Shown piece after piece: positions 1,658-16,244 of a DNA stretch of 32,000 nucleotides. Within the stretch, counting starts at the first letter, position 1. Each line of letters starts with the position of its first letter. This DNA is from Ktedonobacterales bacterium (GTDB lineage Bacteria > Chloroflexota > Ktedonobacteria > Ktedonobacterales > JADMIN01). The DNA lies in assembly GCA_030167145.1 (NCBI GenBank), contig CP126532.1, positions 3,390,001-3,422,000 of the forward strand. Reading direction: 5' to 3'. Under the pieces are notes generated by a model that had not been told where the DNA came from, did not search any database, and saw only the letters and a list, made by a program, of their open reading frames with translations. Position numbers and translations under genes: made by a program.

Positions 1658-3271
1658 CTAGCCGCCGGTGACGCGGCGGGTGAAGGCGGCAATGAAGATG
1701 CCTTCGATGAGGAGGCCGAAGACGGCTTCGAGGCCGGAGAGGGCGGTGACGGTGTCGTTCTCGGTGAGACCCTTGGGTTGGAGGCCGCGCCCGTGGAAGG
1801 AGGTGACGCTGAGGACGAAGGAGTCGATGATGTTGCGGACGGTGGGGAGGACGAGCGCGTGATTGGCGCCGATCCAGAAGGCGAGTGCGAAGACGGTGAT
1901 GACGGTGGCGTAGGTGGCGAACAGGCGCCAGATTTCGTCGCCGTAGCCTGCGAAGGTGCCGAGGAGCCAGGAGAAGAGCCAGCGCCCATAGTGGCGGCTG
2001 TGCCAGTGGGCTTTGCGGTCCATGACCTCGGCGCGGTAGTGGTAGCGGGTGGCGGGGGCGGTGAGGCCCTGGCCACGCAGGGCGACAAAGAGCAGGCGGT
2101 AGGCACGACCAGCAGCTTTGTGCTCGGTGATACGCGTCTCGCGCGTCTTGCGTTTCTTGGCATCGGCAGCGGCATCACCAAGGGCAGTACCAGGGGCAGT
2201 ACCAGGGGCAGTACCAGGAGTGCCAGCCGTGGACGCTTTGGCGATCTGCTCATCTTGGAGGGTGCGGATGCGATCCCAGTCCACGGCGGTCAGGTTGACC
2301 GCACCCCAGTGGACATCAGCGAGTTGCGGACCGATGTCGCCCTTGGCTGCTGCTGTCCAGGTGACATCGGACATGTTTGTCGCCGTATCGAAGAAGGCTC
2401 CACTGAGGTCGGCTCCTTCCAGGTGCGCCCAGCTGAGGTCGGCTCCTTCCAGGTGCACCTCGATGAGGGCGGCCCCGTCGAGCTGCGCATAGCTGAGGTT
2501 GGCCCCGTCGAGCCGTGCCGCGCTGAGGGCGGCCCCGTCCAGATGTGCCCGCCCGAGGGTGGCCCCGTCCAGATGTGCCCAGCGGAGATCGACTTGCTCC
2601 AGGTGCGCCTCGTTGAGGTTGGCTTGCTCCAGGCGCGCCCCGAAGAGGTTGGCCCGTTCCAGGTGCGCCGAGCTGTGGTCGGCCCCCTCCAGATGCGCCC
2701 AGCTGAGGTTGGCCCCTTCCAGGTGCGCCTCGTTGAGGTTGGCGCCCTCCAGGTGCGCCCCGAAGAGGTTGGCGCCCTCCAGGTGCGCGGACCCGAGGTA
2801 CGCCCCGTCGAGGTGCGCCTCGCGGAGGTTGGCGCCCTCCAAGTGCGCCCCGAAGAGGTTGGCGCCCTCCAGGTGAAGGGGTGACAGATCCAGAGAAACC
2901 CGCAGAAGTATAGATATTCCGCTATATATTCCGCCCATATCCTCATCGTCGCGCGAGGCAAGCAGTTGTGCCTCCGCTTTGGCGAGATCCCCGTCGAGCC
3001 CGGCCAATGCCAGTGCGGCGAGCCAGAAGACCTCGGCGCCGGTGAGGCGCATGCCCTTGAGGGCACTACCCTCCGCGCTGCGCTGGGCATCGGGTTGGGC
3101 GGCCCAGGCACGTTGCTGCTCGGTGAGGTCACGCAGGTCGGACATGCGGCTTTCGGACGGCGTATAGCCATTGACGGCGTCGAGCCAGGATGCTTTGGAG
3201 GGGTCGGGGACGGCTGGTGGCATGGATCCGGGCTGGGGTTGGTCGGCTTGGTCGGCTTGGTCGTCGCTCAT
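1658..3271 (-). CDS. Pentapeptide-repeat protein fused to a C-terminal 2-TM ion-channel-like (Ion_trans_2-type) module
   Basis: 537-aa ORF with about 30 consecutive A(D/N)LxG-type pentapeptides (HLEGANLFGAHLEGANLREAHLDGAYL...). The C-terminus has FSWLLGTFAGYGDE (pore-like GYGD), flanked by hydrophobic helices. AGGAG lies 8 nt before the ATG at 3271. Confidence 0.85.
   Translation of the reverse strand: MSDDQADQADQPQPGSMPPAVPDPSKASWLDAVNGYTPSESRMSDLRDLTEQQRAWAAQPDAQRSAEGSALKGMRLTGAEVFWLAALALAGLDGDLAKAEAQLLASRDDEDMGGIYSGISILLRVSLDLSPLHLEGANLFGAHLEGANLREAHLDGAYLGSAHLEGANLFGAHLEGANLNEAHLEGANLSWAHLEGADHSSAHLERANLFGARLEQANLNEAHLEQVDLRWAHLDGATLGRAHLDGAALSAARLDGANLSYAQLDGAALIEVHLEGADLSWAHLEGADLSGAFFDTATNMSDVTWTAAAKGDIGPQLADVHWGAVNLTAVDWDRIRTLQDEQIAKASTAGTPGTAPGTAPGTALGDAAADAKKRKTRETRITEHKAAGRAYRLLFVALRGQGLTAPATRYHYRAEVMDRKAHWHSRHYGRWLFSWLLGTFAGYGDEIWRLFATYATVITVFALAFWIGANHALVLPTVRNIIDSFVLSVTSFHGRGLQPKGLTENDTVTALSGLEAVFGLLIEGIFIAAFTRRVTGG
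2395..2880 (-). repeat. Coding tandem repeats with 15/30-nt period (pentapeptide units), several copies identical at DNA level
   Basis: Exact 20-nt repeats 30 nt apart, e.g. ggccccgtccagatgtgccc at 2531 and 2561, and gaggtcggctccttccaggtgc at 2405 and 2435. gaggttggcgccctccaggtgcgc recurs between 2735 and 2870. All are in frame within the pentapeptide CDS. Confidence 0.8.
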
Positions 3272-3432: not shown

Positions 3433-4998
3433 TTAGAAGCCTAACTGCCAGCGTATTGCCAAACGATTCCACTCCGAAAAAGTGTCTAGATTCCCCCTCG
3501 GTGGTCTGTCAATTGGCGGCCTGGAATTATCTGCCGTGATGGTTACATGAGGCAACGATTCAACGGGTGTCTCTCTAATCAGGTCATTCAGGAGCTTCAC
3601 GACTTCTTCAAAGAGCCTATCGACCAGTACTGCAGGCTGCACGAGACTCAGCCCTGAGCCAAGCGAGCGGACTCCCCAACTCCCTCGCCCGCCCATTGCA
3701 TCCATCGCCGAAAGAATCTTCACCTCCTCCTCTCCCGGCAAGCCGATGCGCGTCTCGGCTTTGCCATCTTGGAAGTACGTCACCCCCTGCAGGGCTGCTC
3801 CATGCACCGAGTTGCGCAGTAAGCGCAGTATCGTCAATGTATGCTCACCCGGCGCACCCGGATCCACTACGGCGGCGAGGGCTGGTGCTCGGGCTGCAAC
3901 GCGCTTGAGCCAATCTTCGAGTTGCCAGCCTGCACTGCGCTCGCCTCTAGACAAGGTGAGCACTTGGTGCGCGACGCGCGCAGCCACATCAACCGCTCCC
4001 ATGAGTGACACGAGTACGTTATCCAGGCAGCCGAGCGCCTCGTCAGAGGTGTCATTGTTTGTCGGCAGGTTCAGAGCGATGTGCACGTCGTCTCGTTCCT
4101 GCAGGGCTTTTGCCACACGGCTCAGCAGCGATCCGCTGAGCAGTGCGAGCTTGTCATTTCCCGTTCCCGATGCGTGTTGAACACACGCGCTGAACCACCG
4201 CCATGCTTCCGGCAGGAGTTCCCGAGCGCCTACCCAATAGTAGAGGCCTCGATTAAAGCGAAACCTGAAGTCTGGTACGCCAGCAGTGACACCAGTGGGC
4301 AAGACAAACTCGCGCTGCGCCCGCAAGTACAGCGCGATAAGTGGTATGGCCTCTTCGAGTGTACAAGCGGTCACGCCTGCCTTGGATACGAACGTACTCC
4401 CGCTGTGGAGGTAGGGACGTTCGGTGATAAACAAGTCGGCATTAACTGCTTGGTCAGCAACCTGGAGCGCCAGCATATCCATCTCGCGCTTCTCGGCTTG
4501 TTGTTCAGGATCAAGCTCCGTATATACCGGTTGAGACTTATCGTTCCTTGCGAGCTCGACCATGTTGCCTCGCACGCCGCCGACTGTATAGCTTTGTTCG
4601 GGCTTTGTGCTATACACGACCGGCCGATAGCGATAGCCGTTACTTTCCTCCAAAGGGTAGGCCACGGCCCATCCCGCATAGATCGGATGTAGTGGTTGGC
4701 GCGGTGAAAGGTCTACAGGTTGTATGTCAGTTGGAGGAAGCCCATCCGTATATCTGTACCATTCAACCACGTCGCTGCCGAGCAACGCCAAGAGCACGGT
4801 GGCTTTGTCCAGTTGCCCCCCAGACGCCTTGACCTCTATGAGTTCAACGTCTACGAGCACCCGCAGCTTACGGAGGGCCTTCCGCGCGGAAAATAAGGTT
4901 GGCACGTCGCTGGGGTTCTTAGGCCAGTCAGACTTAGATGGCCTACGGGTCACATTCTTGAAGTGTTTGATCATATTCGATGCCTGCTTTATGTTCAT
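3433..4998 (-). CDS. Hypothetical protein, 521 aa, no family recognised; last gene of the R-M-associated array
   Basis: Longest ORF here, with balanced composition; the overlapping frames are P/S/R-rich junk. The C-terminal half looks helical and contains LRLLRNSVHGAAL (R-x6-H or R-x3-H, only loosely HEPN-like). The start is uncertain: there is no clear SD before ATG 4998, and ATG 4974 is an alternative. Confidence 0.7.
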   Translation of the reverse strand: MNIKQASNMIKHFKNVTRRPSKSDWPKNPSDVPTLFSARKALRKLRVLVDVELIEVKASGGQLDKATVLLALLGSDVVEWYRYTDGLPPTDIQPVDLSPRQPLHPIYAGWAVAYPLEESNGYRYRPVVYSTKPEQSYTVGGVRGNMVELARNDKSQPVYTELDPEQQAEKREMDMLALQVADQAVNADLFITERPYLHSGSTFVSKAGVTACTLEEAIPLIALYLRAQREFVLPTGVTAGVPDFRFRFNRGLYYWVGARELLPEAWRWFSACVQHASGTGNDKLALLSGSLLSRVAKALQERDDVHIALNLPTNNDTSDEALGCLDNVLVSLMGAVDVAARVAHQVLTLSRGERSAGWQLEDWLKRVAARAPALAAVVDPGAPGEHTLTILRLLRNSVHGAALQGVTYFQDGKAETRIGLPGEEEVKILSAMDAMGGRGSWGVRSLGSGLSLVQPAVLVDRLFEEVVKLLNDLIRETPVESLPHVTITADNSRPPIDRPPRGNLDTFSEWNRLAIRWQLGF

Positions 4999-5037
4999 GG
5001 CGCCAGCGTATCATCTGTTTGGCCTTCCATGCGAAGG

Positions 5038-5373
5038 TCAGTTGCCAGGTGACACTGGCAGCTCTGTTGTGATCGGTGGACGGTCCAGGTAGGTGTCTTG
5101 GAGGGAGTCGTCCCAGATGGCGGCGTAGTGGCCAGCCTCGGCGTCGGTGCCGCGAATGAGGCGGTAGGACATGTTGCTGGCTTTGGCGGTTTGCTCGGCG
5201 GGAGCCTGCTTTGTCTGGACGATGGGGGCGTCTGTCTGGTGGCCAGCAGTGCTGGGAATGAGGAGGACCCACATCTGGCGCGGACGAGCTTCATCCCAGG
5301 TACGCCACAAGAAGTAGCGATAGGCGCCCATGAGGATGGCGCCGTTGTCGTGTAGCTGGTGCGTGAATACCAT
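5038..5373 (-). CDS. Small DUF1643-like protein (short or degenerate)
   Basis: 111-aa ORF. AYRYFLWRTWDE...MWVLLIPSTAGHQTDAPIV resembles the DUF1643 N-terminal signature (yRY.L.R.W... l.fi.lNPStAd...DpTi), and NMSYRLIRGTDAE weakly resembles the NLFA.RaTdP segment. It is shorter than typical family members, and the Asn of NPST is replaced (IPST). The competing ORF 4995-5393 has off-frame P/S/T composition. Confidence 0.45.
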   Translation of the reverse strand: MVFTHQLHDNGAILMGAYRYFLWRTWDEARPRQMWVLLIPSTAGHQTDAPIVQTKQAPAEQTAKASNMSYRLIRGTDAEAGHYAAIWDDSLQDTYLDRPPITTELPVSPGN

Positions 5374-5521
5374 GGTATAGGCCTTCGTTTCACAGGCTCC
5401 GTGTGTGTCAGATCATGTCACATGCGCCGAGGCGTAGGTGGTGCGGGCGCACCGCATCCGCATAAATCCGCAGCATGTGCGGCGGGCCGCACCGTGCGAG
5501 AAGCATCTCACAAGAGCGGGG

Positions 5522-8500
5522 TTAGCTGGCGAGGGTGGGGGAAGCGTAGGGGTGGTGGGTGGCGTCGGCGTAGGCGTCGTAGATGTGCTGGTAGAGGGCG
5601 TCGCATTTGGCGGCATAGGCGGTGGGGGTATAGGCGGCGGGAAGCTCGGTGTCGAGGACGGCGCGAATGGTGGTGAGGACGGCGGCGCGGGTGGCCTGGC
5701 GTTTCTTCCAGTCGAGGACGAGGTTCTGGTGTTTGAGGGTGGCGAGGAGGTCGCGGGCGGCGGTCTTGACCTGGTCGCGTTCTTTCTCGGTGAGGTGCGG
5801 GTCGGGGCGGGTGAGCAGATCGAAGATGGCGAGTTCTTCTTCGGTGAGGCGCTCGGCGGCGGCGCGCTGCTCTTCCGCAGTGAGGGAACGGGCGAGGGCG
5901 ACAAGTTGCTGGAAGAAGAGTTCGACGTTGAGGCTGCCGGTGTTGTAGTCGTCTATGAGGCGCTGGTAGGTGGCGAGATAGCTGGTGCGGCCACGGTTGA
6001 GGCGGACCATGCGGGCGAGGGTGGCGTTGATCTGGCTGCGGAGCTTTGCGGCTTCGGTGTGCTTGCGCGCGGTGGCGAACTGGGCCTGGAGCACGTCGAA
6101 GTCGAGCTGGCTGAGGTCTACGGGTTGGTGGGCGCTGGTGGTCGTACTGGCGCTGGGGTCGCCGTTGGCGTTGGTTGCGTCGGGCGCGCTGGTGACGGCG
6201 CGGATGAGGTAGCTGACGGGGAGGATGGAGGCGTCCAAGAGCTGGTTGAGGTCGTGCTTGAAGTCTTCGGGGAGCTTGCCGGTTTCTTCGATGGAGCGGA
6301 TCATGCGCGCGAGGACGGCGAAGAGGGCGACACGGGGCGCGAAGCGGTTTGCGGTGGGGTCGGGCAGGATGGCGCGGTAGAGTCCGGCGACGTGGGCGGC
6401 ATGGGCGAGGAAACGGCGCTTGGTGTCGTCGTTGGTGGTGAGGGCATCGAGGGCATCTTCAAGCAGGGCGATGCGCTGGAAGGGGTCAGTGGTGGCCTGG
6501 ATGGTGGCGGGGGTGACGCCGTGCTGCTGGCAGAAGGTGGTGGCGTCGTTGAGGGCAGCTTCGAGGGCTTCGACGAGTTGGTGCTTCTCCTGGATGGGGA
6601 GATCGCCAGCGGTGGTCGCGCCGCCGACACCTGCGCCATAGATGGCGAGCGCTTTTTGCAGGTTGCGGAAGATGCCGATGTAGTCCACGATGAGGCCGTT
6701 GGTTTTGTCGCCGAAGACGCGATTGGCGCGGGCGATGGTCTGCATGAGGGTGTGGTTGCGCTGGGGTTTATCGAGGTAGATGGTGGTGACGCTGGGGACA
6801 TCGAAGCCGGTCATCCACATAGCGCAGACGAAGACGAGGCGCAGCGGGTCGGCGGGGGCTTTGAACTTGGTTTCGAGGTCTTCGGTGACCATGCGGCGGC
6901 GGTGGGGTACGATGTCCGCGCCCTTCTTTTGCAGGTCGGTGACTTCGTTTTGCGAGGGGGAGACGACGACGGCCATATCGGTGGTTTCCATGTAGCGGAT
7001 GCGGGCGGCGAGGTCGTCGCGCTGGTCGGGCTGATCGGCTGGGATGAGGGGAAGCTGGGCGCGGAGGCGGTCGAGGTAGGCTTGCCAGGCGCGCTTGACG
7101 TGATCGTACATGCGTACAGCGGTGGCTTTATCTATGGAGACGACCATCGCTTTGCCGAGCTGGCCGCGCTGCATGAAGTGGGCGACGAGATCGTCGGCGA
7201 TGGTGGCGAGGCGTTCGCTGCGGGTGATGAGCTGGTATTCGCGGAGGAACTCGCGGTCGAGCTTCTGTTGCTGGGCGTCGTCGAGGTCGGCGGCTTCGAT
7301 GGCGTCGGCGATGTCGGTATCGAGGGCGGCGTTGGTGAGTTCGAGTTCGGGGATGCGGTTTTCGTAGTAGAGCGGTACGGTGGTGCCGTCTTCGACGCTC
7401 TGGCGGAAGTTGTAGACGCTGACGTAGTCGCCGAAGACCTGGCGGGTTTTCTCTTCGGTGGCGATGAGCGGGGTGCCGGTGAAGGCGAGGAAGGCGGCGC
7501 GCGGTAGGGCGTTCCGCATGTTGAGGGCGAGGGTGTCGTACTGGCTGCGGTGGGCTTCGTCGGTGATGACGATGAGATCGGAGCGGTCGGAGAGGGTGGG
7601 GTAGCGCGTGCCTGGCTCGGTGTGGAACTTTTGAATGAGGGTGAAGACGTAGCGATGGTCGGCGCGGAGCAGTTGCTGGAGGTGAGCGCCGCTGTTGGCG
7701 TGGACCTCCTTCTCTGGCTCGGTGACGGCGCCCGCGCTGGCAAAGGTTTTGTAGATCTGGTCGTCGAGTTCCTGGCGGTCGGTGACGATGAGGAAGGTCC
7801 AGTTGCCGGGGAGCTTGCGCAGCACCTTTTGGGCGAAGAAGACCATGGAAAGGCTTTTGCCGCTGCCCTGGGTGTGCCAGAAGACGCCGAGACGGCCCTG
7901 ATTCTCGCGGATGGAGCGGGTGGCGGCGAGGGCGTTGTTGACGCCGAGGTACTGGTGATTTTTGGCGAGCAGCTTGATGGTGGGGCCGGTGGCGTCGCTA
8001 AAGAGGGTGAAGTTTTCGATGTAGTCGAGCAGGCGGGTGGGGTCGCAGAGGCCACGCAGGGCGGTATCGAGGGAGACGATGCCCTGCTCGCCCTCCTCGG
8101 AACGGCTCGGAGGGGCTTCACCTCGCCTACGGCTCGGCTCGCCCTCGCTGGTGATGCGTTTCCACTCGAAGAAGTGTTCCCAGCCAGCGGTGAGGCTGCC
8201 GATGCGAGTCTCGCGGCCATTGGAGAGCAGGATGAGGGCGTTGTACCAGAAGAGGTGGGGGATACTGGTTTTGTAGTCGGTGAGGTTGTGGTCGTAGGCG
8301 TCTTGCAGGCGGCGATGGGCGGCTTTAAGTTCGATAAAGACGAGGGGAAGGCCGTTGACGAAGCCGAGCAGGTCGGGGCGGCGGTGGTAGATGTCGCCGT
8401 TGACGCGGAGTTGGGAGACGAGGAGCAGGTCGTTGTTGGCGGGGGTGGACCAGTCTATGACGGTGATACGCAGGTCTTGCCCTTCGGCGGCTTGGGGGCT

Positions 8501-8842
8501 GTCGCTGGCGCTGTTGGTGTCGGAGGTGCGGATGCGGACGGGGACGCCGTCTTTGAGGAGGCGGTAGACATCGTGGTTGGCGGCGACGGGGGTTTGGGTG
8601 GAGCGGTCGCGGGTGAGTTCGGCGATGGCGGCTGCGATGGCGGCGGCGGGCGCGGTGGGGTTGAGGCGCTGGAGGGCGGGACGGAGACGCTGGGTGAGGA
8701 CGACTTCGGCGCGGGTCTCGCGGCCAAGCGTGCCGGTGGGGCCGTAGGTTTCGTCGAAGGCGTTGAGGGTTTGCCAGCCGAGGGCGGCAAACAAGGCGAT
8801 GGCGGGCTGTTCGATGAGGGCGTCTTCGGAATAGGTGCGCAT
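5522..8842 (-). CDS. hsdR: Type I restriction enzyme, R (restriction/helicase) subunit
   Basis: N-terminus YSEDALIEQPAIALFAALGW is typical of HsdR_N. SF2 helicase motifs are present: WHTQGSGKSLSM (Walker A/motif I), VITDEAHRSQ (DEAH), FTGTP. The C-terminal LTEEELAIFDLLT is typical of the HsdR C-terminal helical domain. Start assigned to ATG 8842, preceded by AGGAG about 10 nt upstream; the ORF track's 8893 start adds an R/P-rich leader. Confidence 0.95.
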   Translation of the reverse strand: MRTYSEDALIEQPAIALFAALGWQTLNAFDETYGPTGTLGRETRAEVVLTQRLRPALQRLNPTAPAAAIAAAIAELTRDRSTQTPVAANHDVYRLLKDGVPVRIRTSDTNSASDSPQAAEGQDLRITVIDWSTPANNDLLLVSQLRVNGDIYHRRPDLLGFVNGLPLVFIELKAAHRRLQDAYDHNLTDYKTSIPHLFWYNALILLSNGRETRIGSLTAGWEHFFEWKRITSEGEPSRRRGEAPPSRSEEGEQGIVSLDTALRGLCDPTRLLDYIENFTLFSDATGPTIKLLAKNHQYLGVNNALAATRSIRENQGRLGVFWHTQGSGKSLSMVFFAQKVLRKLPGNWTFLIVTDRQELDDQIYKTFASAGAVTEPEKEVHANSGAHLQQLLRADHRYVFTLIQKFHTEPGTRYPTLSDRSDLIVITDEAHRSQYDTLALNMRNALPRAAFLAFTGTPLIATEEKTRQVFGDYVSVYNFRQSVEDGTTVPLYYENRIPELELTNAALDTDIADAIEAADLDDAQQQKLDREFLREYQLITRSERLATIADDLVAHFMQRGQLGKAMVVSIDKATAVRMYDHVKRAWQAYLDRLRAQLPLIPADQPDQRDDLAARIRYMETTDMAVVVSPSQNEVTDLQKKGADIVPHRRRMVTEDLETKFKAPADPLRLVFVCAMWMTGFDVPSVTTIYLDKPQRNHTLMQTIARANRVFGDKTNGLIVDYIGIFRNLQKALAIYGAGVGGATTAGDLPIQEKHQLVEALEAALNDATTFCQQHGVTPATIQATTDPFQRIALLEDALDALTTNDDTKRRFLAHAAHVAGLYRAILPDPTANRFAPRVALFAVLARMIRSIEETGKLPEDFKHDLNQLLDASILPVSYLIRAVTSAPDATNANGDPSASTTTSAHQPVDLSQLDFDVLQAQFATARKHTEAAKLRSQINATLARMVRLNRGRTSYLATYQRLIDDYNTGSLNVELFFQQLVALARSLTAEEQRAAAERLTEEELAIFDLLTRPDPHLTEKERDQVKTAARDLLATLKHQNLVLDWKKRQATRAAVLTTIRAVLDTELPAAYTPTAYAAKCDALYQHIYDAYADATHHPYASPTLAS

Positions 8843-8904
8843 GGTGGGTGGTCTCCTACGTGGCGGGAAGTTGAAAGTGCGCGACGGGCGCATGCCGTGC
8901 GCCC

Positions 8905-10011
8905 CTACGATGGCTGGTAGCCGGGAAACCCGCTTGTGCGGGGTGGGATGGTGACTGGGAACATGTCGGAGTGGGATTCGTGCGGAATGAGTTCGATGAC
9001 GATGAAATGGTCGTCTAGGTATTTCAGCAGGGATTCCAGGGTAGTTGCCCCCAACGCAAGCCCTGCCTCGGCCTCACCAACAATGCTCCACTCGATGGTG
9101 GGGTTATCGCTGCGGAGCCTGACACCTTGGATAGTTAGGTGAGAGTGCGCGCCGTTGGACTTTCTGACGACGGCAAAGGCTGAACGCTGGAGGTCGTCGC
9201 GGTGTAAGCAATGTTGCCGTATGGCATCGGGTGTCGGGGGTGTGAACTTCAGCAGTTTTAGAAGCGCATCCAGAAGGAGTCGCTGATCGTTCCCACGTGT
9301 CATGCTGAGGAACAGGGGGCGCTCGGATACAAGATCGGCGTGCAGCGATGGCCCTTTCTGTAGGGCAAGGCGGAGATAATGCAACGCGCTCTCTGGCTCC
9401 TTCTGGAGCGCGCGAATCTGAGCCATGTAATACTCAGGCTGGCCGGGGTCCTGTGAGTCGCTCGCTTCCAATGCACGCTGCGCCCAATATCCAGCTCGCG
9501 CAAGTGATTTTTCACGTGTCGGGGGCCAACTTACAGCAACATTGATGTGCGCAGCTGCCATCAGTACAGCAGCATTAGGTAAATCGGGGACTTCTTCAAG
9601 GATGCGCTCGATTTCCGGTTCTTTGACATCGAGCGGCGCGGGCCAAAGCAACGTGAACTCTCCCATTGCGCGGATGCGCTTGTGCAGGTCTTTGGTGAGG
9701 TCAGTTTTGATGACATCGAGCTTCTGCGCCACCACCTGCTCCACGCGCTGATCGAGCCGGAACCACTGGAAGGCGACGACGATAGCGCCGAGGATGGCAA
9801 GCATGGCGGCCATGATGCCCGCAATGGTGGCCGCGAAACCGGCAACAGACCACGGATCGCCGCGAAGGGGAAGTACGAGTACGAGCATGAGGGTGACAAT
9901 CAACAGGACGATGACGACGGCGATTGCGACGACGAAGGTAATCGCAAGGGACCGTGACGACTTTTGACCGAGCATCGTGCTACTCTCGACTTTCACTCTC
10001 CGGTGTTTCAC
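8905..10011 (-). CDS. Hypothetical 2-TM membrane protein with helical (TPR-like?) and C-terminal soluble domains, embedded between hsdS and hsdR
   Basis: Two strong hydrophobic helices: LAITFVVAIAVVIVLLIVTLMLVLVL and VAGFAATIAGIMAAMLAILGAIVVAF. The soluble region has repeat-like helices (YWAQRALEASD..., YYMAQIRALQKEPESALHYLRLALQKG). Co-directional and tightly packed with its neighbours. Alternative start at ATG 9975, 4 nt after the upstream stop. Confidence 0.7.
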   Translation of the reverse strand: MKHRRVKVESSTMLGQKSSRSLAITFVVAIAVVIVLLIVTLMLVLVLPLRGDPWSVAGFAATIAGIMAAMLAILGAIVVAFQWFRLDQRVEQVVAQKLDVIKTDLTKDLHKRIRAMGEFTLLWPAPLDVKEPEIERILEEVPDLPNAAVLMAAAHINVAVSWPPTREKSLARAGYWAQRALEASDSQDPGQPEYYMAQIRALQKEPESALHYLRLALQKGPSLHADLVSERPLFLSMTRGNDQRLLLDALLKLLKFTPPTPDAIRQHCLHRDDLQRSAFAVVRKSNGAHSHLTIQGVRLRSDNPTIEWSIVGEAEAGLALGATTLESLLKYLDDHFIVIELIPHESHSDMFPVTIPPRTSGFPGYQPS

Positions 10012-11026
10012 CAGTTGGGTCGGGCGCTGCGGCAGATGGGGTTAGCTCTTGCACCAAGTGCTGCCCCATCAGGCTTAGGATTTGGGCAAGGCGGGTTATT
10101 TCGTCAGGTGTGAGGGATATTTTGTGGCCGACGATGGCCTGCGGGTCGTTGGCGCGCTTCACGTAGTCCTCGTCAATCACGCCTGCCTTGTGAGCGAGTA
10201 GATGGCGTTTCTGGAAGCAGCGGCAGGCAAACTGCCAGTCGTCGGGGGGTGTAGAGGCTGCGAGGTCAAGGTTGAAGAACTGCTGCACGCGCTTTTGCGC
10301 GCCTGGGAGGTTCTGGAAGGAGAGATTTTCGACCTTGTCGGGAGATGTTGCCTGGGCGGCATGGATGCGGCAGGTTTCGCGCCCGAAGGCGTCGAACGCG
10401 GATACTTGAGCCTGAAGAGCATTTGCAATGAGTTGTGCGGCGAGATTGGGATCAAAATCGGAGTCAACCTGTGCAGCGGACGCTGCTATTTTCTCGGCTA
10501 CTTCGAGGTTCTTCTGTAGGATTTGGAATGAGTTGTGGATACCGCAGTCGGGACAATACGCGAAGACGCCGTAGATGGCATAGCGCAGGGTGCAGTTCGC
10601 GCAGATGACATGAGTTTCAAGCTGCTCCTCCAGGTAGTGGAGGATGGGCGGTGGTGTGGTTTCAATCTTCAGACTCAAGCCGATTCCGAACGGGCCAGTA
10701 GGTGGCATGTCGAATTCATACGGTTTCAGTTGGTCTGCGAGATAGTTTGTAACCTCGCCCTCAAAAATGGACAGGACATACGCGCGTTGGTCGGGTGTTA
10801 AAAATCTGTCCGCTTCCGCGGCATGGCCGCAATAGGGACAGTAGCTCTGCGCGACAGCTGGGAGGCCGGTACCAAAGGTGACCTTAAAATAGCGCTGGCA
10901 TGCAGGATCAGGGCATTGGCGACCAGTGTAGCCGTTTTCGTCGGTCGGTAGTGTGATCCGCATTTGGAAACGGGTAGCATCTTCATCTTCGTCGGTGACG
11001 GTTTCGGCTCTATCGTCATCGTTCAT
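9980..11026 (-). CDS. Double zinc-ribbon protein with a C-terminal HEPN-like helical domain (R-x4-H), embedded between hsdS and hsdR
   Basis: Two CxxC...CxxC ribbons: CPDPAC...CPYCGH and CANC...CPDCG. The C-terminal helical region contains CFQKRHLLAHKAGVIDEDYV, i.e. RHLLAH, which fits the HEPN R-x4-H motif with a polar residue after R. The ORF starts 3 nt after the hsdS stop. GC is about 50% by hand count, versus about 70% in hsdR. Confidence 0.7.
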   Translation of the reverse strand: MNDDDRAETVTDEDEDATRFQMRITLPTDENGYTGRQCPDPACQRYFKVTFGTGLPAVAQSYCPYCGHAAEADRFLTPDQRAYVLSIFEGEVTNYLADQLKPYEFDMPPTGPFGIGLSLKIETTPPPILHYLEEQLETHVICANCTLRYAIYGVFAYCPDCGIHNSFQILQKNLEVAEKIAASAAQVDSDFDPNLAAQLIANALQAQVSAFDAFGRETCRIHAAQATSPDKVENLSFQNLPGAQKRVQQFFNLDLAASTPPDDWQFACRCFQKRHLLAHKAGVIDEDYVKRANDPQAIVGHKISLTPDEITRLAQILSLMGQHLVQELTPSAAAPDPTGETPESESRE

Positions 11027-11029
11027 GGG

Positions 11030-12379
11030 TTAGTCTCCTATCTCGATTGCGATGTGCTCCACGTCTAGCTCGCCGGAGATGAGCTTGGGCAAGAGGAGGT
11101 CGCGGGTGCGGCGGAGGGTGTCGCAAGTATCAGCTAGATTGGACGATGTCAGATCCGAAAAAGTGCTCATCGCCAATGCCCGCAACGACTTGTCATTGGG
11201 AAGTGCTAGGTATTCGGACTGGACAAACCTGGTTGCTTGAAAGTTGCCGATGCCGTTTGTAGCGACATTTTGATAGAACGCCATTCGACCTTCATCATGT
11301 AGGTACTTCAAGTGTAAATGCATGAGCGGCCCCATTTGTGGTTCCTTGGGGCGAAACAATTTGCAGAAACTCGCGCAAATTACGTCGCCTCCTAGCCTGC
11401 GAAGAATGCCAGAGGTGATAAGAAGGCTCTTCCCGATAGTTCGGCTATTGGCATTGACTGAGTTTTCCACGATCAGGTCGCCGGGCCTGAGTGTACGCGC
11501 TTTGAGGCTGCGTTCACTAATGAAGCGAACGGGTGCTCGTGAGTGATTTCCAAGACGAATATCATCGAAGTCTGTACCTCTAATTACCGTTACTGGCCGT
11601 GTATCCTCCGCCGTTGGATCACCACTCCCCCAGTCACCTCCAAGCGTCAAGTCTAGCAGGTCGGCGTAGGTGGCCATCTGCCAGCCGGAGGGGATGGGGC
11701 CGAATGGGCTGTCAGTCATCTCATACGCTGCGTGGCCGGGAAAGCGGAAATGGACGAACCATTCGCGGTAGAGGGTGCGGGCGAGGTCTTCGAGGAGGGC
11801 GATACGGCGGGTGTTGTTTTCGATGAGGTCGTCGTATGCAGAGAGGATGGCGGCGATTTTGCGCTGGATGGGGAGGGGCGGGAATCGCACCTGTGCGCTC
11901 TTAAGAGTAGTAAGTGGACTTGAAATTGCTGGAACACCAGAGCCTCCAGCATGGCTCAGAAGCTCGTGCTGACCGAATTCGGATCGGAAATAGTAGTACA
12001 GAAACGCGGGCAAGACCTTTGATTCATCGCAGGTGAGTTTCATTTGGCTTTGGGATACTACGTAGCGACTGAATTGTCCTCTAGGAATCAGCCCCACCTG
12101 GCCCAGAGTACCTCGGTGTGTAAACACTAGATCATCTGGGTAGGCATTGCTCGCCCTCAGTTCGTCTGCCTTCTCTTCTGAGATATAGACCAAGTCGTCG
12201 TGGCTAAATCTGTCGCCAGCGATGTTTGTACCGCGAATTACGGGTACTCCGAACGGAATGAAGTTGTCCTTTGTTATCCGTGAGCCGAACGGCCCCATAG
12301 CGAGGGCGTGTTTCACATTTGCGGCAATTTCGGCGACTTCTACGGATTTCCATATGGCCGTCGTGGCAGTCGTAGCCAT
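11030..12379 (-). CDS. hsdS: Type I restriction-modification specificity subunit
   Basis: Two target-recognition halves are separated by the conserved central helix LPPLPIQRKIAAILSAYDDLIENNTRRIALLEDLARTLYREWFVHFRFPGH. The terminal helix is LRRTRDLLLPKLISGELDV. Start set at ATG 12379, which overlaps the upstream stop (TGATG) and follows GGAGGTG. Confidence 0.9.
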   Translation of the reverse strand: MATTATTAIWKSVEVAEIAANVKHALAMGPFGSRITKDNFIPFGVPVIRGTNIAGDRFSHDDLVYISEEKADELRASNAYPDDLVFTHRGTLGQVGLIPRGQFSRYVVSQSQMKLTCDESKVLPAFLYYYFRSEFGQHELLSHAGGSGVPAISSPLTTLKSAQVRFPPLPIQRKIAAILSAYDDLIENNTRRIALLEDLARTLYREWFVHFRFPGHAAYEMTDSPFGPIPSGWQMATYADLLDLTLGGDWGSGDPTAEDTRPVTVIRGTDFDDIRLGNHSRAPVRFISERSLKARTLRPGDLIVENSVNANSRTIGKSLLITSGILRRLGGDVICASFCKLFRPKEPQMGPLMHLHLKYLHDEGRMAFYQNVATNGIGNFQATRFVQSEYLALPNDKSLRALAMSTFSDLTSSNLADTCDTLRRTRDLLLPKLISGELDVEHIAIEIGD

Positions 12380-12960
12380 CACTTCACCTCCGACGGGGTC
12401 GCAAGCTCGCGGCGGCACAGGTCTGCAAGATAGAAAATGGCTTTCATTACCTCGGTTACGGTGGTAATGAGATAGAACTCCATCAAAGAAAACAGAACTG
12501 GGTCAGCATGCCACACCTGATAGATTCGCGCTTTGGCCTCATCGGAATGTATGATCTCGCCGTAAAAGAAGACATCGGCTACTTCGCGGTGTGTGTATGC
12601 TTTCCCGTCCACGATAACGGGGATTGGTTCATCGAAGAGAAAATCCACTGTCTGGTTTACATCTCGAAATTCACTTTTCCAAGTCTCGGAGATGTCAGGG
12701 CTGATAAGGAGCGCGGACATGGCGCTGAAGGATACTAGCTCCTTCTTTAGGAAGAACTGCCGAAACGTCGCTCCGGCCGCTATGATCGCCTCGGGGTCTG
12801 GTCCCGTGTGGTGGGCGTAGACTCCTTCATCCATACTCATGCGCACGGAATACTCAACTCCGCCCTGCTCTACTATGCGCTTGGCGAAACTTAGATTCCG
12901 TAGCTTGTCGGCTTTCTCGACAAATTGCTCTAGCCGCTTTCTGGTGCGATCATCCATCAT
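12379..12960 (-). CDS. Hypothetical protein (~193 aa), translationally coupled to hsdS
   Basis: ORF with normal composition and GC of about 47% (one 60-nt hand count). GGAGGTGGA lies immediately before tandem ATGs at 12960 and 12957. Its stop overlaps the hsdS start. No recognisable family. Confidence 0.65.
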   Translation of the reverse strand: MMDDRTRKRLEQFVEKADKLRNLSFAKRIVEQGGVEYSVRMSMDEGVYAHHTGPDPEAIIAAGATFRQFFLKKELVSFSAMSALLISPDISETWKSEFRDVNQTVDFLFDEPIPVIVDGKAYTHREVADVFFYGEIIHSDEAKARIYQVWHADPVLFSLMEFYLITTVTEVMKAIFYLADLCRRELATPSEVK

Positions 12961-13013
12961 TCCACCTCCGGTAGCACGGTACTGGCGAATTCTGTGGTTC
13001 ACGGGTTATGTGC

Positions 13014-13373
13014 TCAACTCATTTGCTTGAGGTCAATACATAGGGCGATGCCGTCGGCGAGGGCGTCTACGTCTGCTTGTGAGAGCGCGCCGACTTTGGC
13101 CACCAACCGCTCGATAGCGACGCAGCGAACTTGCAGCACGTTGCCACACGAGTCATGGGTGAGACCATTGGACAGGTCGGGCTGGAGCGGGACCATAAAG
13201 GACCACGCGGCAAACTTGGGTTGCCACGTGGTGATCGGGACAATGATCCGTAACCGTTGACTATCAAAGGCGGGCGAGCTGATAACGGCGGCAGGGCGGC
13301 GCTTTCGCATTTCCGCGCCGCGTGTTGGGTCCAGGTCCACGGTCCAGATTTCGCCGCGTGTTGGACTACTCAT
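13014..13373 (-). CDS. mazF: MazF/PemK-family type II toxin (endoribonuclease)
   Basis: The N-terminus RGEIWTVDLDPTRGAEMRKRRPAAVISS is the classic PemK/MazF signature. Size (119 aa) is typical. The ATG overlaps the upstream gene by 8 nt. Confidence 0.9.
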   Translation of the reverse strand: MSSPTRGEIWTVDLDPTRGAEMRKRRPAAVISSPAFDSQRLRIIVPITTWQPKFAAWSFMVPLQPDLSNGLTHDSCGNVLQVRCVAIERLVAKVGALSQADVDALADGIALCIDLKQMS

Positions 13374-14577
13374 CCGTGTATTCCCACTCCTCCCAATCGT
13401 CGCTATCCAGCGCGTTAAATTCGGTCAGTTCAGGATTGGTGCGGTACTCTTCGGCGGCTGCTTCGGCTGCTTCGGCGAGGATGCGATGGCGTTCCTCACG
13501 GGGCATGCGCAGCAGGTCGCGGGCGGTGTAGGTGCGCCCGGCGGGCTGGGCGGCGGGTTGGGGTGTGAGGCAGCCGGGGCAGAGTTGGAGGGCGCGTTCC
13601 TCGGTGATGATGCCTTCGGCGAAGGCGCGGAGGGTCATCTGTTTGAGGCGGGTTGGCTCTTCGGGCGCTTCGCATGCCACCGGTTCGCGAACGGTGGCCT
13701 CGCGTGCAACGAATTCGGCGCGCAAGCGGTCGTACTGCCCGCGGTCAATGACATCTAGCTCCAGTGCGCGGTGAGTCCAGGCTTGCATGCTGAGGCCGTA
13801 TTTGCATTTGAGCATGCCCAACTCGTCGAAGCTGAGGTGGCGGCGGCGGTCGCCTAGCTCGCGGCGCGCGACCTCAGCGGGGACAAGGAATGCGCCGGCA
13901 AACCGGTTCGCCAGCGCTTCATCGTCGCCATTTTCGGGTTCAGTGGACGGCGACAGGATGTGTTTCAATTCGTGAGCGAGGCTAAATCGGCGGCGATCTG
14001 GGGCGGTGCTCGTGTTGACGACGATGAACGGCGCGCGCTGATTGATCCACGCGGCGAGACCGTCAAAGCGGCCCTCGTCTTGGTCCCAGCCGACAATGAC
14101 GCCGCCGTGATCTTCGATGGTCTGGGTCACACTTTCGATGGGAGCGGTGCCGAGACCCCACGCGCGGCGAAGATCCAGCGCCGCTGCTTCGGCCTCGTCG
14201 AATGTGCTGATGTTCAGGGCGGGTACTCGTGGCTGGTCGTTGGAGTACAGAATGGATTGGAGCCAGCACTGACCTTCGGCGACATTGAGCGCGGCCGCCT
14301 TGATCTGCTCCTGACGCGCGGGCGCAAGCTGCGCATGCTTGCGGAAGGCCAGCCACTGAACGGTCAACTCTGGCTCCGCGAGGAAATAGGACGAGGGAAC
14401 GGTCAGCACGCGCGCCAGCTTCAACAGGAGCGATGCGCTGGGAGTGCTGCCGTTATGTTCGTACTTGGAAAGTCCCTGCTTGGTGATGGCCTGGCCTAAC
14501 TCGCCCAGGCGTTGCGCGACCTCGTCGAGGGTTAGCCCTGCCGCCAGGCGGGCCTGACGCATGCGGTTACCGATCAT
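13366..14577 (-). CDS. XRE-family HTH + ImmA/IrrE (M78, COG2856) zinc-metallopeptidase fusion with an acidic Trp-rich C-terminal tail; putative MazF antitoxin/regulator
   Basis: HTH: IGNRMRQARLAAGLTLDEVAQRLGELGQAITKQGLSKYEHNGSTPSASLLLKLARVLTV. HExxH: SLAHELKHIL, followed by ANRFAGAFLVPAE. The tail TNPELTEFNALDSDDWEEWEYTDE resembles the MazE C-terminus ([21 protein letters not shown]). Start at ATG 14577, with GGAGGA 7 nt upstream. Confidence 0.85.
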   Translation of the reverse strand: MIGNRMRQARLAAGLTLDEVAQRLGELGQAITKQGLSKYEHNGSTPSASLLLKLARVLTVPSSYFLAEPELTVQWLAFRKHAQLAPARQEQIKAAALNVAEGQCWLQSILYSNDQPRVPALNISTFDEAEAAALDLRRAWGLGTAPIESVTQTIEDHGGVIVGWDQDEGRFDGLAAWINQRAPFIVVNTSTAPDRRRFSLAHELKHILSPSTEPENGDDEALANRFAGAFLVPAEVARRELGDRRRHLSFDELGMLKCKYGLSMQAWTHRALELDVIDRGQYDRLRAEFVAREATVREPVACEAPEEPTRLKQMTLRAFAEGIITEERALQLCPGCLTPQPAAQPAGRTYTARDLLRMPREERHRILAEAAEAAAEEYRTNPELTEFNALDSDDWEEWEYTDE

Positions 14578-14624
14578 GGCTGTTTCCTCCCCCGCTGTTG
14601 ACGAAAATAGCGATATAGTATGTG

Positions 14625-14640
14625 TTGTCCATGTGGACAA
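14625..14640. promoter_or_regulatory. Perfect palindrome TTGTCCA-tg-TGGACAA upstream of the XRE-ImmA/mazF pair; candidate operator
   Basis: 7-bp inverted repeat with a 2-nt spacer, 48 nt upstream of the XRE-ImmA start, in the 104-nt hsdM-XRE gap. On the minus strand a TTGACA hexamer (complement of 14661-14666) and TA-rich -10-like hexamers (tactatat) flank it. Confidence 0.5.
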
Positions 14641-14681
14641 GTTACCATGTTTTCCACAAGTTGTCAACATCAAGGGCGCAT

Positions 14682-16244
14682 TCATTCTGCTTCCAGGAGG
14701 GCGGCGACGTTGGCGGAGATGCGGTCTTCGAGGGTGTGGGCCTCGGCGTTGAGACGTTCGAGTTCTTCGTGTAGCTCTTCGAGGCGCTCGCGGAAGTCGA
14801 AGTCATCGGGGGCGCGCTCGGCGACGCCGACATAGCGGCCGGGGTTGAGGCTCCAGCCCTGGGCGGCGATCTGGGCGCGGGTGGCGACACGGCAGAGGCC
14901 GGGGACATCGCGGTAGACGCCATCGGGGAACTGCGCGGCGAGGAGGGCGGCGCTGTCGTGGGCGTTCTCGACGGGTTCGCCGCGATAGAGGCGGACAATG
15001 TTGGCGAGGTATTCGATCTGCTGGGGGGTGAACTCGCGGTGGGCGCGGTCGAGCTGGTGGAAGATGTGGCGGGCGTCGAGGAAGAGGACGGTATCGCCGC
15101 GCGGGGTGGAGCGTTTGGCTTTATCGAAGAACCAGAGGGTGCAGGGGAGGGTGACGGTGTAGAAGAAGTTGGGGCCGACGGAGACCATGACATCTACGAC
15201 GCCATCTTCGATGAGCTTCTGGCGGATGACCTGCTCGGAGGCGCGGGCATCGCTGGCGGAGTTGGCCATGACGAACCCGGCGCGGCCCTGGGGATTGAGG
15301 GCGCTATAGAATTCCTGAATCCACAGGTAGTTGGCGTTATCCACGCGGGGCATTCCGAAGGGGTAGCGGGCGTGGTCGCCCTTGATCTTCTCTTTGTCCA
15401 CGCCGTCGGCGTTGAAGGGGGGATTGGCCATGACGAACTCGAAGCGACCGACGCAGTTGTGGACGTTCTGGTAGTAGGTGTTGGCCTCTTTGATGTCGCC
15501 GGAGAGGCCATGCACGGCCAGGTTCATTTTGCAGAGGCGGATGGTCTCGCGGGTCTTTTCTTGGCCGTAGAGCGAGATGGTGTTGGTGGGGTTCTGCTGG
15601 TGATTGCGGACGAAGCGGGCGCTCTGGACGAACATACCGCCGGAGCCACAGGCGGGGTCCAGAATGCGGCCATGGAACGGCTCGATGACCTCGACGATGA
15701 GCTTGACGATGGGGGTGGGGGTGAAGAACTCGCCGCCGCGCTGGCCTTCGAGCTTGGCGAACTCGCTGAGGAAGTATTCGTAGATTTTGCCGAAGACATC
15801 GCCTTCCAGGTCCATGGGAATCGCGGAGAAGATTTTGAGCAGCGCCCAGAGCGTGTCTTTTTCGAGGCGGTTGTAGGATTTGGGGAGGGTGTCTTTGAGG
15901 TCGGGGTTCTCGGCCTCGATGGCGTGCATGGCAGCGGTAACGGCTTTGGCGATGTCGTCGCCTTCGGGCAGGCGCAGGAGGGTGGAGTAGCGGGCGGCTT
16001 CGGGAACGTACATGACGCCGCGCGCCTGGTAGTCGGCTTTATCTATGGTGCGGCGGCTATTGGGTGGGAGGGAGGCGGCGAGTTCGGCCTGGGCGTGGGT
16101 GAACTTGTGGTCGGCGAAGCGCAGGAAGATGAGGCCGAGGACGGGGACGGAGTATTCGGAGGCGCGGAGGCCGGAGTTGGTGCGGAGTTGGTCGGCGGAG
16201 TCCCAGAGTTTGGATTCGAGGGCGGCGTGGTTGTTGGCGGGCAT
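14682..16244 (-). CDS. hsdM: Type I restriction-modification DNA methyltransferase subunit (N6-adenine)
   Basis: HsdM_N-type N-terminus [36 protein letters not shown]. AdoMet motif [12 protein letters not shown]. Catalytic NPPF in [10 protein letters not shown]. Confidence 0.95.

Follow-up and report, generated by a model that had tools for sequence, protein, structure and literature searches.

In RosmerTA, the antitoxin RmrA combines a helix-turn-helix (HTH) domain with a Zn-peptidase (Millman et al. 2022, bioRxiv 10.1101/2022.05.11.491447), and in the NetFlax network the ImmA 'D25' hub antitoxin pairs with many toxins, PIN-like ones included (Ernits et al. 2023, PMC10440598). Fusions of COG2856 and Xre domains have been found next to PIN and RelE toxins and predicted to form a protease-regulated, more complex circuit (Makarova, Wolf and Koonin 2009, PMC2701414); MazF is not listed there among the partners of these fusions, and the partners listed for MazF are AbrB, RHH and XF1863. 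Here we describe a locus in a 32,000-nucleotide (nt) stretch of a Ktedonobacterales metagenome-assembled genome (GCA_030167145.1, contig CP126532.1, positions 3,390,001 to 3,422,000; hereafter the window, to which all coordinates refer) in which a mazF gene overlaps the gene of a 403-amino-acid (aa) protein made up of an XRE-type HTH, an M78 peptidase and a C-terminal module that we predict to be a MazF antitoxin. An HTH-M78 antitoxin beside a toxin gene is already known; the pairing with MazF and the C-terminal module appear to be new. Full-text literature searches returned no account of a MazF that has an HTH-M78 antitoxin as its partner, and the stand-alone family of the module, at which no search was aimed, was met in no description.

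Sequence comparisons make it very probable that, taken jointly, the MazF protein is an intact toxin whose cognate antitoxin element is the C-terminal module, that operator half-sites of the HTH are conserved and that the peptidase site is under selection. On balance, we lean towards reading the locus as a type II toxin-antitoxin (TA) cassette of the RosmerTA or COG2856-Xre kind, composed of a MazF toxin and a three-part fusion antitoxin from which the toxin would be released through the M78 domain.

A mazF gene and its three-part partner

The whole cassette, like every site and gene located below, lies on the minus strand. The fusion antitoxin gene (13366..14577, stop codon included) begins at an ATG at 14577 (N-terminus MIGNRMRQ), with a Shine-Dalgarno sequence, GGAGG, 8 nt 5' of it (14586..14590). 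Its stop codon and the start codon of mazF (13014..13373, stop codon included; 119 aa) fall within a shared 8-nt stretch, ATGAGTAG (13366..13373), an overlap whose sequence implies translational coupling. An earlier note, made from the sequence of the window, had described a mazF that lacks a small AbrB- or RHH-type MazE gene and overlaps by 8 nt a protein with an XRE HTH, an HExxH M78 peptidase and a distinct C-terminal part. Each of these points stands: the overlap lies where it was placed, the N-terminus encoded upstream is an XRE HTH by Pfam, and Pfam and the sequence agree on the three parts. No separate small antitoxin open reading frame (ORF) could be accommodated between the 403-aa gene and mazF, as the two overlap. 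Both products are named 'hypothetical protein' by NCBI.

The toxin gene encodes a protein of the PemK/MazF endoribonuclease fold (Pfam PemK_toxin, PF02452; 1.3e-22 over aa 6-111), whose closest solved structure is Mycobacterium tuberculosis MazF9 (1.6e-14). R29 and T52 are the catalytic residues of Escherichia coli MazF, and BLASTP with that protein aligned RRPAAV with HRPAVV and VPITT with VPCTT, so that R26 and T48 match these two residues. No PADLOC model matched the toxin at E <= 0.01 or at E <= 1, and it does not fall in a recognised RmrT toxin family of RosmerTA.

Its partner starts with the XRE-type HTH (aa 1-66; 14380..14577), supported by Pfam HTH_3 (aa 6-65, 1e-11), an ImmR profile match and modelled helices. 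The M78, ImmA/IrrE-like peptidase core with a helical C-terminal sub-domain follows (aa 67-332; 13582..14379); it matches Peptidase_M78 (aa 179-271, 2e-12) and RmrA profiles, and contains the zinc-binding, catalytic motif HELKH (aa 202-206; 13960..13974) and the motif ANRFAGAFLVP. A variable linker (aa 333-344; 13546..13581), with low model confidence and low conservation reaching to about aa 351, leads to the C-terminal module (aa 345-403; 13369..13545), which consists of a helix, LRMPREERHRILAEAAEAAAEEY, and an acidic, aromatic tail, TNPELTEFNALDSDDWEEWEYTDE. An AlphaFold2 model of the protein built from 120 homologues (mean predicted local distance difference test, pLDDT, 91.3; predicted template modelling score 0.82) has HTH helices at aa 2-66 and a globular core to about aa 332, then a linker at aa 341-350 (pLDDT about 65), a helix at aa 352-385 (about 86) and a tip at aa 386-403 (52-55) that the model suggests is probably disordered.

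The module also exists on its own. A profile of the last ~59 residues matched 389 proteins, and the best 120 of these (E 1e-15 to 1e-22) are all small (46-104 aa, mostly 67-68 aa) and carry no precomputed Pfam domain. Matches between module and stand-alone proteins reached E values of 1e-15 to 1e-26 across searches, and window aa 345-403 are 34-56% identical, over the whole module, to 20 stand-alone proteins of 60-104 aa. One stand-alone example is P0145, MSDNNVPVHGKKWTAAELRKLPAAERDAILEAAAAMAEEIYRTNPELTDFEAFGEDDLYGESTATPEG. Scans of eight of the stand-alone proteins against Pfam and of six against NCBIfam gave no significant family. The window protein has the C-terminal consensus of the family, (W/Y)TAxEL(R/L)xLPxxERxxIL...Y(R)xNxxLTxFEAFGxxDLY. 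An exhaustive profile search of 1.84 billion representatives yielded 696 clusters (50% identity), of which 351 had E <= 1e-10. Among 264 module-bearing proteins, 167 are up to 80 aa long, 86 are 81-130 aa, 8 are 131-200 aa and 3 exceed 200 aa, and in 248 no more than 12 residues separate the end of the module from the C-terminus.

These small proteins are encoded upstream of the same kind of toxin. A MazF gene lies directly downstream of, or overlaps, the antitoxin gene in 6 of the 7 stand-alone loci examined: it was called as a gene in four (L161, L162, L163 and L164), is complete and was missed by the gene finder in L166, and is frameshifted in L165; L167 has no MazF downstream. The MazFs of stand-alone loci are 38-45% identical to that of the window, and those beside fused proteins 34-50%. 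The stand-alone module matched nothing among plasmid records. One of these loci, L163, holds two MazF TA pairs (160-740 and 2501-3224) less than 2.5 kb apart, one with a module-type antitoxin of 103 aa and the other with an unlike antitoxin of 78 aa, its MazF belonging to another subfamily.

The module is found behind short unannotated N-terminal extensions as well. Single cases include P0336 (307 aa), in which it follows an unrelated 245-aa N-terminus with a hydrophobic start and no Pfam match, and P0247, P0302 and P0333 (146-154 aa), in which two tandem module helices stand behind a short N-terminal domain (ILxALxxxPxxRWxEVLxF). As the module stands alone and the scaffold is widespread without it, the 403-aa protein is best described as a fusion of two independent units, in line with the earlier proposal that an antitoxin tail had been grafted onto an ImmA-like scaffold. 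As part of the whole explanation, we think it rather more probable than otherwise, judging by these comparisons, that the piece of ~55 aa is a portable MazF-antitoxin module, used alone in proteins of 60-70 aa or joined to other N-termini. The XF1863 MazF antitoxins of Makarova were considered as the identity of the stand-alone family; they are described as strand-helix-helix proteins, mainly proteobacterial, and are set apart by that description.

The earlier note had also likened the tail to the MazF-binding C-terminus of E. coli MazE, and this part of it fell. The toxin-binding part of MazE is a C-terminal acidic, aromatic, disordered stretch. Homology of the module to MazE was rejected by hhalign, with probabilities of 0.2% for E. 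coli MazE and 0.07% for M. tuberculosis MazE9, the partner of MazF9, and the module profile found neither MazE nor anything else relevant in the PDB and Pfam; these results leave the likeness as one of composition, and we retain it as an analogy. BLASTP of the module against MazE gave two short, non-significant matches and nothing more. One of them aligns ALDSDDWEE (aa 389-397, about 13387-13413) with AGDTDAWEQ of MazE9 (PDB 6kyt chain P) at a non-significant E = 0.14; this resemblance may mark a convergent binding motif. With no AbrB or RHH N-terminus and no MazE-homologous C-terminus, the 403-aa protein is not a canonical MazE.

The module and MazF travel together on the XRE-M78 scaffold. 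Genome and metagenome contigs were scanned and yielded 160 related XRE-M78 loci; the count that follows uses the 140 in which the gene is complete and has 350 nt or more of sequence after it. In 37 loci the scaffold carries an extension of 64-80 aa and MazF lies directly downstream; one locus has the extension and no MazF, none has MazF without the extension, and the remaining 102 have neither. The search thus turned up the XRE-COG2856 proteins adjoining MazF genes that the earlier note had suggested looking for, in 37 loci and all with tails, and no tail-less XRE-ImmA homologue beside mazF among the 140. In the exceptional locus, L059, a tail-bearing XRE-M78 gene (1368-2522) is followed by 270 nt without MazF, then by an hsdM truncated after 132 codons by an insertion sequence and by an IstB-like ATPase gene on the opposite strand; by its gene content it looks like a decayed locus.

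Module and toxin also co-vary. Across 38 distinct pairs, MazF distance correlated with module distance when scaffold distance was controlled for (partial Mantel r = 0.18, p = 0.002). The scaffold of L168 is 71% identical to that of the window and its MazF merely 40-41%; its tail tip, EAFGEDDLYDEYPE, is of a type unlike the window's, and its MazF is 63% identical to the MazF after P0121, a stand-alone antitoxin with a like tip type. L087, whose scaffold is ~50% identical, has a Trp-type tip as in the window and the most similar MazF (50%). This modest sequence evidence fits an exchange of tip and toxin together, or their co-evolution.

The scaffold itself belongs to a family of known antitoxins. 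Fourteen PADLOC RmrA profiles match the 403-aa protein, the best at 1.3e-44 over aa 4-329, and the protein has the HTH and M78 Zn-peptidase of a RosmerTA antitoxin. The NCBIfam spr1629 repressor/antitoxin model matches the scaffold at 6.5e-27, under the curated cut-off of that model. A profile of the family matches the ImmR DNA-binding domain (7t8i, 1.4e-8) and C.Csp231I (5e-7), as well as 9vzy, IrrE (3dte) and CapP, and CapP (7t5t) is the top Foldseek match in the PDB to the modelled protein, which has the M78 fold, the HExxH motif and the downstream Glu ligand of ImmA, IrrE and CapP. The solved 9vzy (chain A) is a 393-aa 'HTH cro/C1-type domain-containing protein' that matches the M78 core of the family at 2.9e-8; a literature search found no paper on it, and with it the structure of an RmrA-type antitoxin may have been solved for the first time.

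With the 403-aa protein as query, 666 matches were obtained among 5.8 billion proteins. The best 120 are nearly all ~400 aa in length, align over 95-100% of the query and end in a common pattern, ...LPxxERxRILAxAAxxAExEYRxNxxLTxFEAFGExDLxD. HExxH is kept in 117 of these 120, and E203, E220 and E252 are invariant; such near-universal conservation in the MazF-linked clade suggests that the peptidase is under selection in the MazF context. Majority-residue frequencies over the same homologues are 0.69 in the HTH, 0.64 in the core, 0.35 in the linker (aa 333-351), 0.61 in the module helix (aa 352-380) and 0.67 in the module motif (aa 381-395), so that the module (0.61-0.67) is as conserved as the catalytic core and the linker far less so.

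Tail-less relatives are ~350 aa long, ending at the equivalent of window aa ~333, and have a different neighbour. In ~100 loci (within L007-L160; for example, L007 1566-2066), the gene 3' of the tail-less XRE-M78 gene encodes a conserved protein of ~165 aa (MPKRLIINDANVLID...) with weak matches to DUF3368 and PADLOC PDC-S70, by which it is probably a PIN-like toxin. The gene is present in 50 of the 80 loci of the genome scan, and such loci occur in many Proteobacteria. Matches to the 403-aa protein occurred in 165 plasmid records, the 15 best of which all stop at query residue 332-333 and are thus tail-less; phage relatives are distant. Clustering of core distances (unweighted pair group method with arithmetic mean) produced two large MazF-only clusters, with L096 and L099 as outliers among PIN-linked proteins. 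A single origin of the MazF-linked scaffolds was not supported, their monophyly being recovered in 6 of 100 bootstraps.

Probable operator half-sites and the restriction-modification operon

The stop codon of the upstream gene, hsdM, at 14682 leaves a gap of 104 nt (14681..14578) before the fusion gene, and this gap appears to hold two tandem promoters, P1 and P2, interspersed with half-sites of one motif. The first half-site, GTTGACA (14662..14668), aligned in Ktedonobacterales relatives, contains the -35 TTGACA of P1, and a candidate -10, TAACTT (14639..14644), lies 17 nt past it. The central palindrome TTGTCCAcaTGGACAA (14625..14640) consists of two abutting half-sites, its right arm supplying the -35-like TGGACA of P2; a promoter scan placed the -10-like TATTTT of P2 at 14604..14609 (TGGACA, 16 nt, TATTTT; 14631..14604). 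The last half-site, CGTCAAC (14597..14603), recognised by alignment, sits between the P2 -10 and the ribosome-binding site.

The palindrome had been reported at exactly this position and put forward as a candidate autoregulatory operator. Taken by itself it is marginal, as a perfect 7+7 inverted repeat arose in 218 of 5000 shuffles of the gap (4.4%). It is made credible not by rarity but by a layout that related loci conserve, and the conserved arrangement of half-sites in relatives backs the operator proposal. Of 36 distinct regions upstream of MazF-linked genes, 30 contain TGTCAAC, which reaches a density of 6.66 per kb there and 0.137 per kb in the background (~49-fold), and 25 contain its complement, GTTGACA. 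For PIN-linked relatives, TGTCAAC is found in 10 of 104 such regions, and for stand-alone antitoxin genes, which encode no HTH, in 0 of 4.

In the conserved layout, GTTGACA holds the -35 and TGTCAAC follows the -10 at once; in many loci, the latter half-site runs straight into another GTTGACA that supplies the -35 of a second promoter, the two forming a palindrome. A final TGTCAAC stands just 5' of the ribosome-binding site. At the position of the window's TAACTT, relatives have GAAAAT or TATAAT and then TGTCAAC. The window palindrome corresponds in position to TGTCAACGTTGA(C/A)A in L001, L088, L091, L096, L168 and L169, and GTCAAC is invariant in an alignment of the window with L168, L169 and L087. 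Relative to the family's TGTCAAC|GTTGACA, the window has an A to C change in the left arm and T to G in the right, mirror-image changes of the kind expected of a site for a symmetric dimer. The TGTC(A/C)AC half-sites are therefore, as these alignments suggest, a likely operator of the HTH over its own promoters.

The cassette lies inside a type I restriction-modification (R-M) operon. Directly upstream is the methylase gene hsdM (14682..16244; Pfam N6_Mtase, 1.6e-80, and HsdM_N). Downstream of mazF come an ORFan of 192/193 aa without a family match (12379..12960), hsdS (12418/12379..11030; Pfam Methylase_S), the gene of a 348-aa PDC-M14A-like protein (11026..9980; PADLOC PDC-M14A, 6e-16), that of a 368-aa membrane protein, hydrophobic at its N-terminus and weakly matching TPR (10011..8905), and hsdR (8893..5522; TIGR00348, 2.5e-140). 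The placement between hsdM and hsdS given in the earlier note is correct and is conserved in close relatives. L087 has the order hsdM (69% identical), fusion gene and MazF. L168 has hsdM, fusion gene (71%), MazF and fragments of hsdS and hsdR, and L169/L170 have hsdM (77%), fusion gene (61%), a frameshifted mazF, hsdS and hsdR (67%). The frameshift (~7217-7560) is identical in two independent assemblies, from NCBI and JGI, in which the 402-aa antitoxin gene is intact.

Elsewhere, R-M genes are seldom nearby. They were found in 2 of the 38 MazF-linked loci of the genome and metagenome scans (L026 and L087), and in L026 alone among the 18 such loci with at least 8 kb of sequence. Comparison of these loci indicates that the cassette is stably inherited between hsdM and hsdS in Ktedonobacterales and is uncommon in R-M operons elsewhere. 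As it stands between hsdM and hsdS, its promoter is also upstream of hsdS and hsdR. Terminator-like sites between 10800 and 16600 number five, with 4.7 expected from shuffles, and on this sequence evidence the cassette promoter may also feed hsdS and hsdR.

The ORFan was considered as a third component of the cassette and could not be assigned as one: it has no family match, its sole match in 5.8 billion proteins is itself, and it is absent from related loci. Its stop codon overlaps the likely hsdS ATG (12379) by 1 nt, and its NCBI name, 'Exonuclease SbcC', looks unfounded. An unrelated ORF of 128 aa takes its position in L168. In that locus, hsdM, hsdS and hsdR are each split into several ORFs (4328-5892, 7614-8911 and 11572-13215) and the XRE-M78 gene and mazF are intact, which from the sequence could represent either R-M decay around a live TA cassette or assembly errors. 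The 348-aa protein has Cys-rich, zinc-ribbon-like N-terminal motifs, and a homologue 44% identical to it lies near the R-M genes of L026. In L169, a DUF3644 protein takes the first position after hsdS.

Proposed mechanism and competing explanations

We propose a mechanism in three steps. The steps of neutralisation and autoregulation rest on comparative evidence, and that of release on analogy with ImmA/ImmR, IrrE/DdrO and CapP/CapH. First, the last ~55 residues, the helix and the disordered acidic, aromatic tail, would keep MazF inactive, the tail presumably contacting the MazF dimer in the manner of other disordered antitoxin tails. Second, the XRE HTH would repress its own two tandem promoters through flanking TTGTC(A/C)AC half-sites, of which the palindrome would be the middle pair. 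Third, after a stress or phage signal, the M78 domain would cut the fusion protein, in cis or in trans, either in the variable linker or between HTH and core; with the module detached or exposed by such a cut, MazF would be set free and repression would end. In Ktedonobacterales, these events would take place in a cassette that appears as a fixed insert between hsdM and hsdS.

The steps differ in how far we would press them. By the analogy just named, release of MazF gated by the M78 protease is a tentative proposal, and doubtful as it stands. We offer with slightly greater reserve the full picture of a self-destructing antitoxin, in which a phage or DNA-damage cue would set off its own M78 cut, made in the linker or module of that chain or of a neighbouring one, releasing MazF independently of Lon/ClpP and de-repressing a promoter that feeds hsdS and hsdR.

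Several observations weigh against the proposed mechanism. The co-occurrence of extension and MazF (Fisher p = 4e-33) was computed with related loci treated as independent. No cleavage site can be named in the 403-aa protein, and the low confidence of the tip is what would be expected of a disordered antitoxin, not a positive sign of binding. If the stand-alone modules work, the M78 domain is not needed for neutralisation, since they carry no protease. The scaffold, for its part, may contribute to neutralisation, given that the tail-less RmrA-like relatives presumably neutralise their PIN-like partners, and it may have a role of its own, as mazF is broken in L169/L170 and the antitoxin gene is not.

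The main rival explanation, which we judge unlikely, is that of an ordinary type II pair. Lon or Clp would remove the tail as in classical MazEF, and the M78 domain would act elsewhere, its substrate being a separate XRE repressor or some phage protein, or would serve as a sensor or dimerisation scaffold retained from an RmrA ancestor. The protease-free modules of 60-70 aa, whose MazF partners belong to the window's subfamily, are readily understood on these terms, as is the predicted disorder of the tail tip, a feature of protease-labile antitoxins; moreover, the mechanism of the RmrA peptidase is not established in the literature found. Such a pair would not, however, account for the selection that seems to act on the peptidase, with HExxH and the downstream glutamates nearly universal in the MazF-linked clade, and the characterised M78 relatives described in the sources consulted all cleave their cognate XRE partners; here that partner is in the same chain.

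A second alternative makes the XRE-M78 core the neutralising element and the module something else, such as a pseudo-substrate or auto-inhibitor in the peptidase cleft. Tail-less relatives do exist beside PIN-like genes, and the helix at aa 352-385, modelled with fair confidence in the monomer, could pack on the core. Yet the module alone forms complete small proteins encoded upstream of MazF, it occurs on unrelated N-termini, a finding not easily squared with the M78 cleft as its partner, and it co-occurs with MazF rather than with the scaffold. We therefore regard this alternative as very improbable.

Least probable of all is that the HTH protein is a C-protein-like controller of the type I R-M operon, timing hsdS and hsdR, with mazF as a passenger: the HTH resembles R-M controller proteins (C.Csp231I and the PADLOC Control_protein profile, the latter at 5e-6), the cassette promoter is upstream of hsdS and hsdR with terminators not above chance, and the position is kept in L087, L168 and L169/L170, in the last of which the regulator outlives a frameshifted mazF, but the operator motif is kept whether or not R-M genes are near, as they rarely are (2 of 38 MazF-linked loci, and 1 of 18 with at least 8 kb), and tail and MazF are conserved as a pair.

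Relation to known systems

How HTH-M78 hubs neutralise unrelated toxins, and what their peptidase does, is unsettled in the literature consulted; at this locus, the neutralising element can be located by homology. Neutralisation by the tail, DNA binding by the HTH and proteolysis by HExxH appear separable within one protein, so that truncations and point mutants can test each. The module also points to a family of MazF antitoxins for which Pfam and NCBIfam have no model, with 696 clusters at 50% identity, most without a DNA-binding domain, and its attachment to several N-terminal parts clearly illustrates how antitoxins are put together from modules. The lasting presence of the cassette in an R-M operon in Ktedonobacterales prompts one to ask whether restriction and the release of the toxin share their regulation. 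If self-cleavage is true, a single proteolytic event would couple abortive infection to restriction, and RmrA-type scaffolds in general would be signal-gated proteases carrying bolted-on, toxin-specific neutralising peptides.

The locus shares with RosmerTA an HTH and M78/ImmA Zn-peptidase antitoxin beside a toxin gene, in a setting in which one scaffold serves many unrelated toxins; it differs in that the toxin is MazF/PemK and the antitoxin has an additional C-terminal module of ~55 aa. Like the COG2856-Xre systems, it has an Xre HTH fused to a COG2856 HExxH Zn-protease and encoded together with a type II toxin in one operon, and its tail-less relatives precede a PIN-like gene as some of those do, whereas no toxin-specific C-terminal module is described in PMC2701414. 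Canonical MazEF (PDB 1ub4; MazE9-MazF9, 6kyt) has the same MazF fold and catalytic residues and an antitoxin gene that is upstream and overlapping, but the window has an XRE HTH in place of AbrB or RHH, a peptidase of ~270 aa before the tail and no detectable homology to MazE.

M78 HExxH proteases and XRE HTH proteins also work together in ImmA/ImmR (ICEBs1), IrrE/DdrO (Deinococcus) and CapP/CapH (of CBASS, the cyclic oligonucleotide-based anti-phage signalling system). CapP, IrrE and the ImmR HTH are the nearest solved structures to the 403-aa protein, and CapP cuts CapH. The sources consulted describe M78 proteases that cleave XRE repressors after a signal, ImmA acting on ImmR and IrrE on DdrO. 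In these systems, protease and repressor are separate and the output is transcription, whereas the window has both in one chain with a module predicted to neutralise a toxin, and its output would be release of an RNase. PrrC (EcoprrI) is an RNA-cleaving toxin whose gene lies amid hsd genes in a type I R-M operon and which the R-M complex itself restrains. The window toxin, unlike PrrC, brings its own antitoxin, and its cassette is mostly found outside R-M operons. In its division of labour, the 403-aa protein comes close to PanA (Panacea), which Ernits et al. 2023 (PMC10440598) present as a promiscuous hub and putative sensor that delegates neutralisation to an attached toxin-specific domain; both would join a hub antitoxin domain to an attached neutralising one, but the hub of PanA is Panacea/DUF4065 rather than HTH-M78, and its neutralising elements are PAD1, ZBD and Phd-C.

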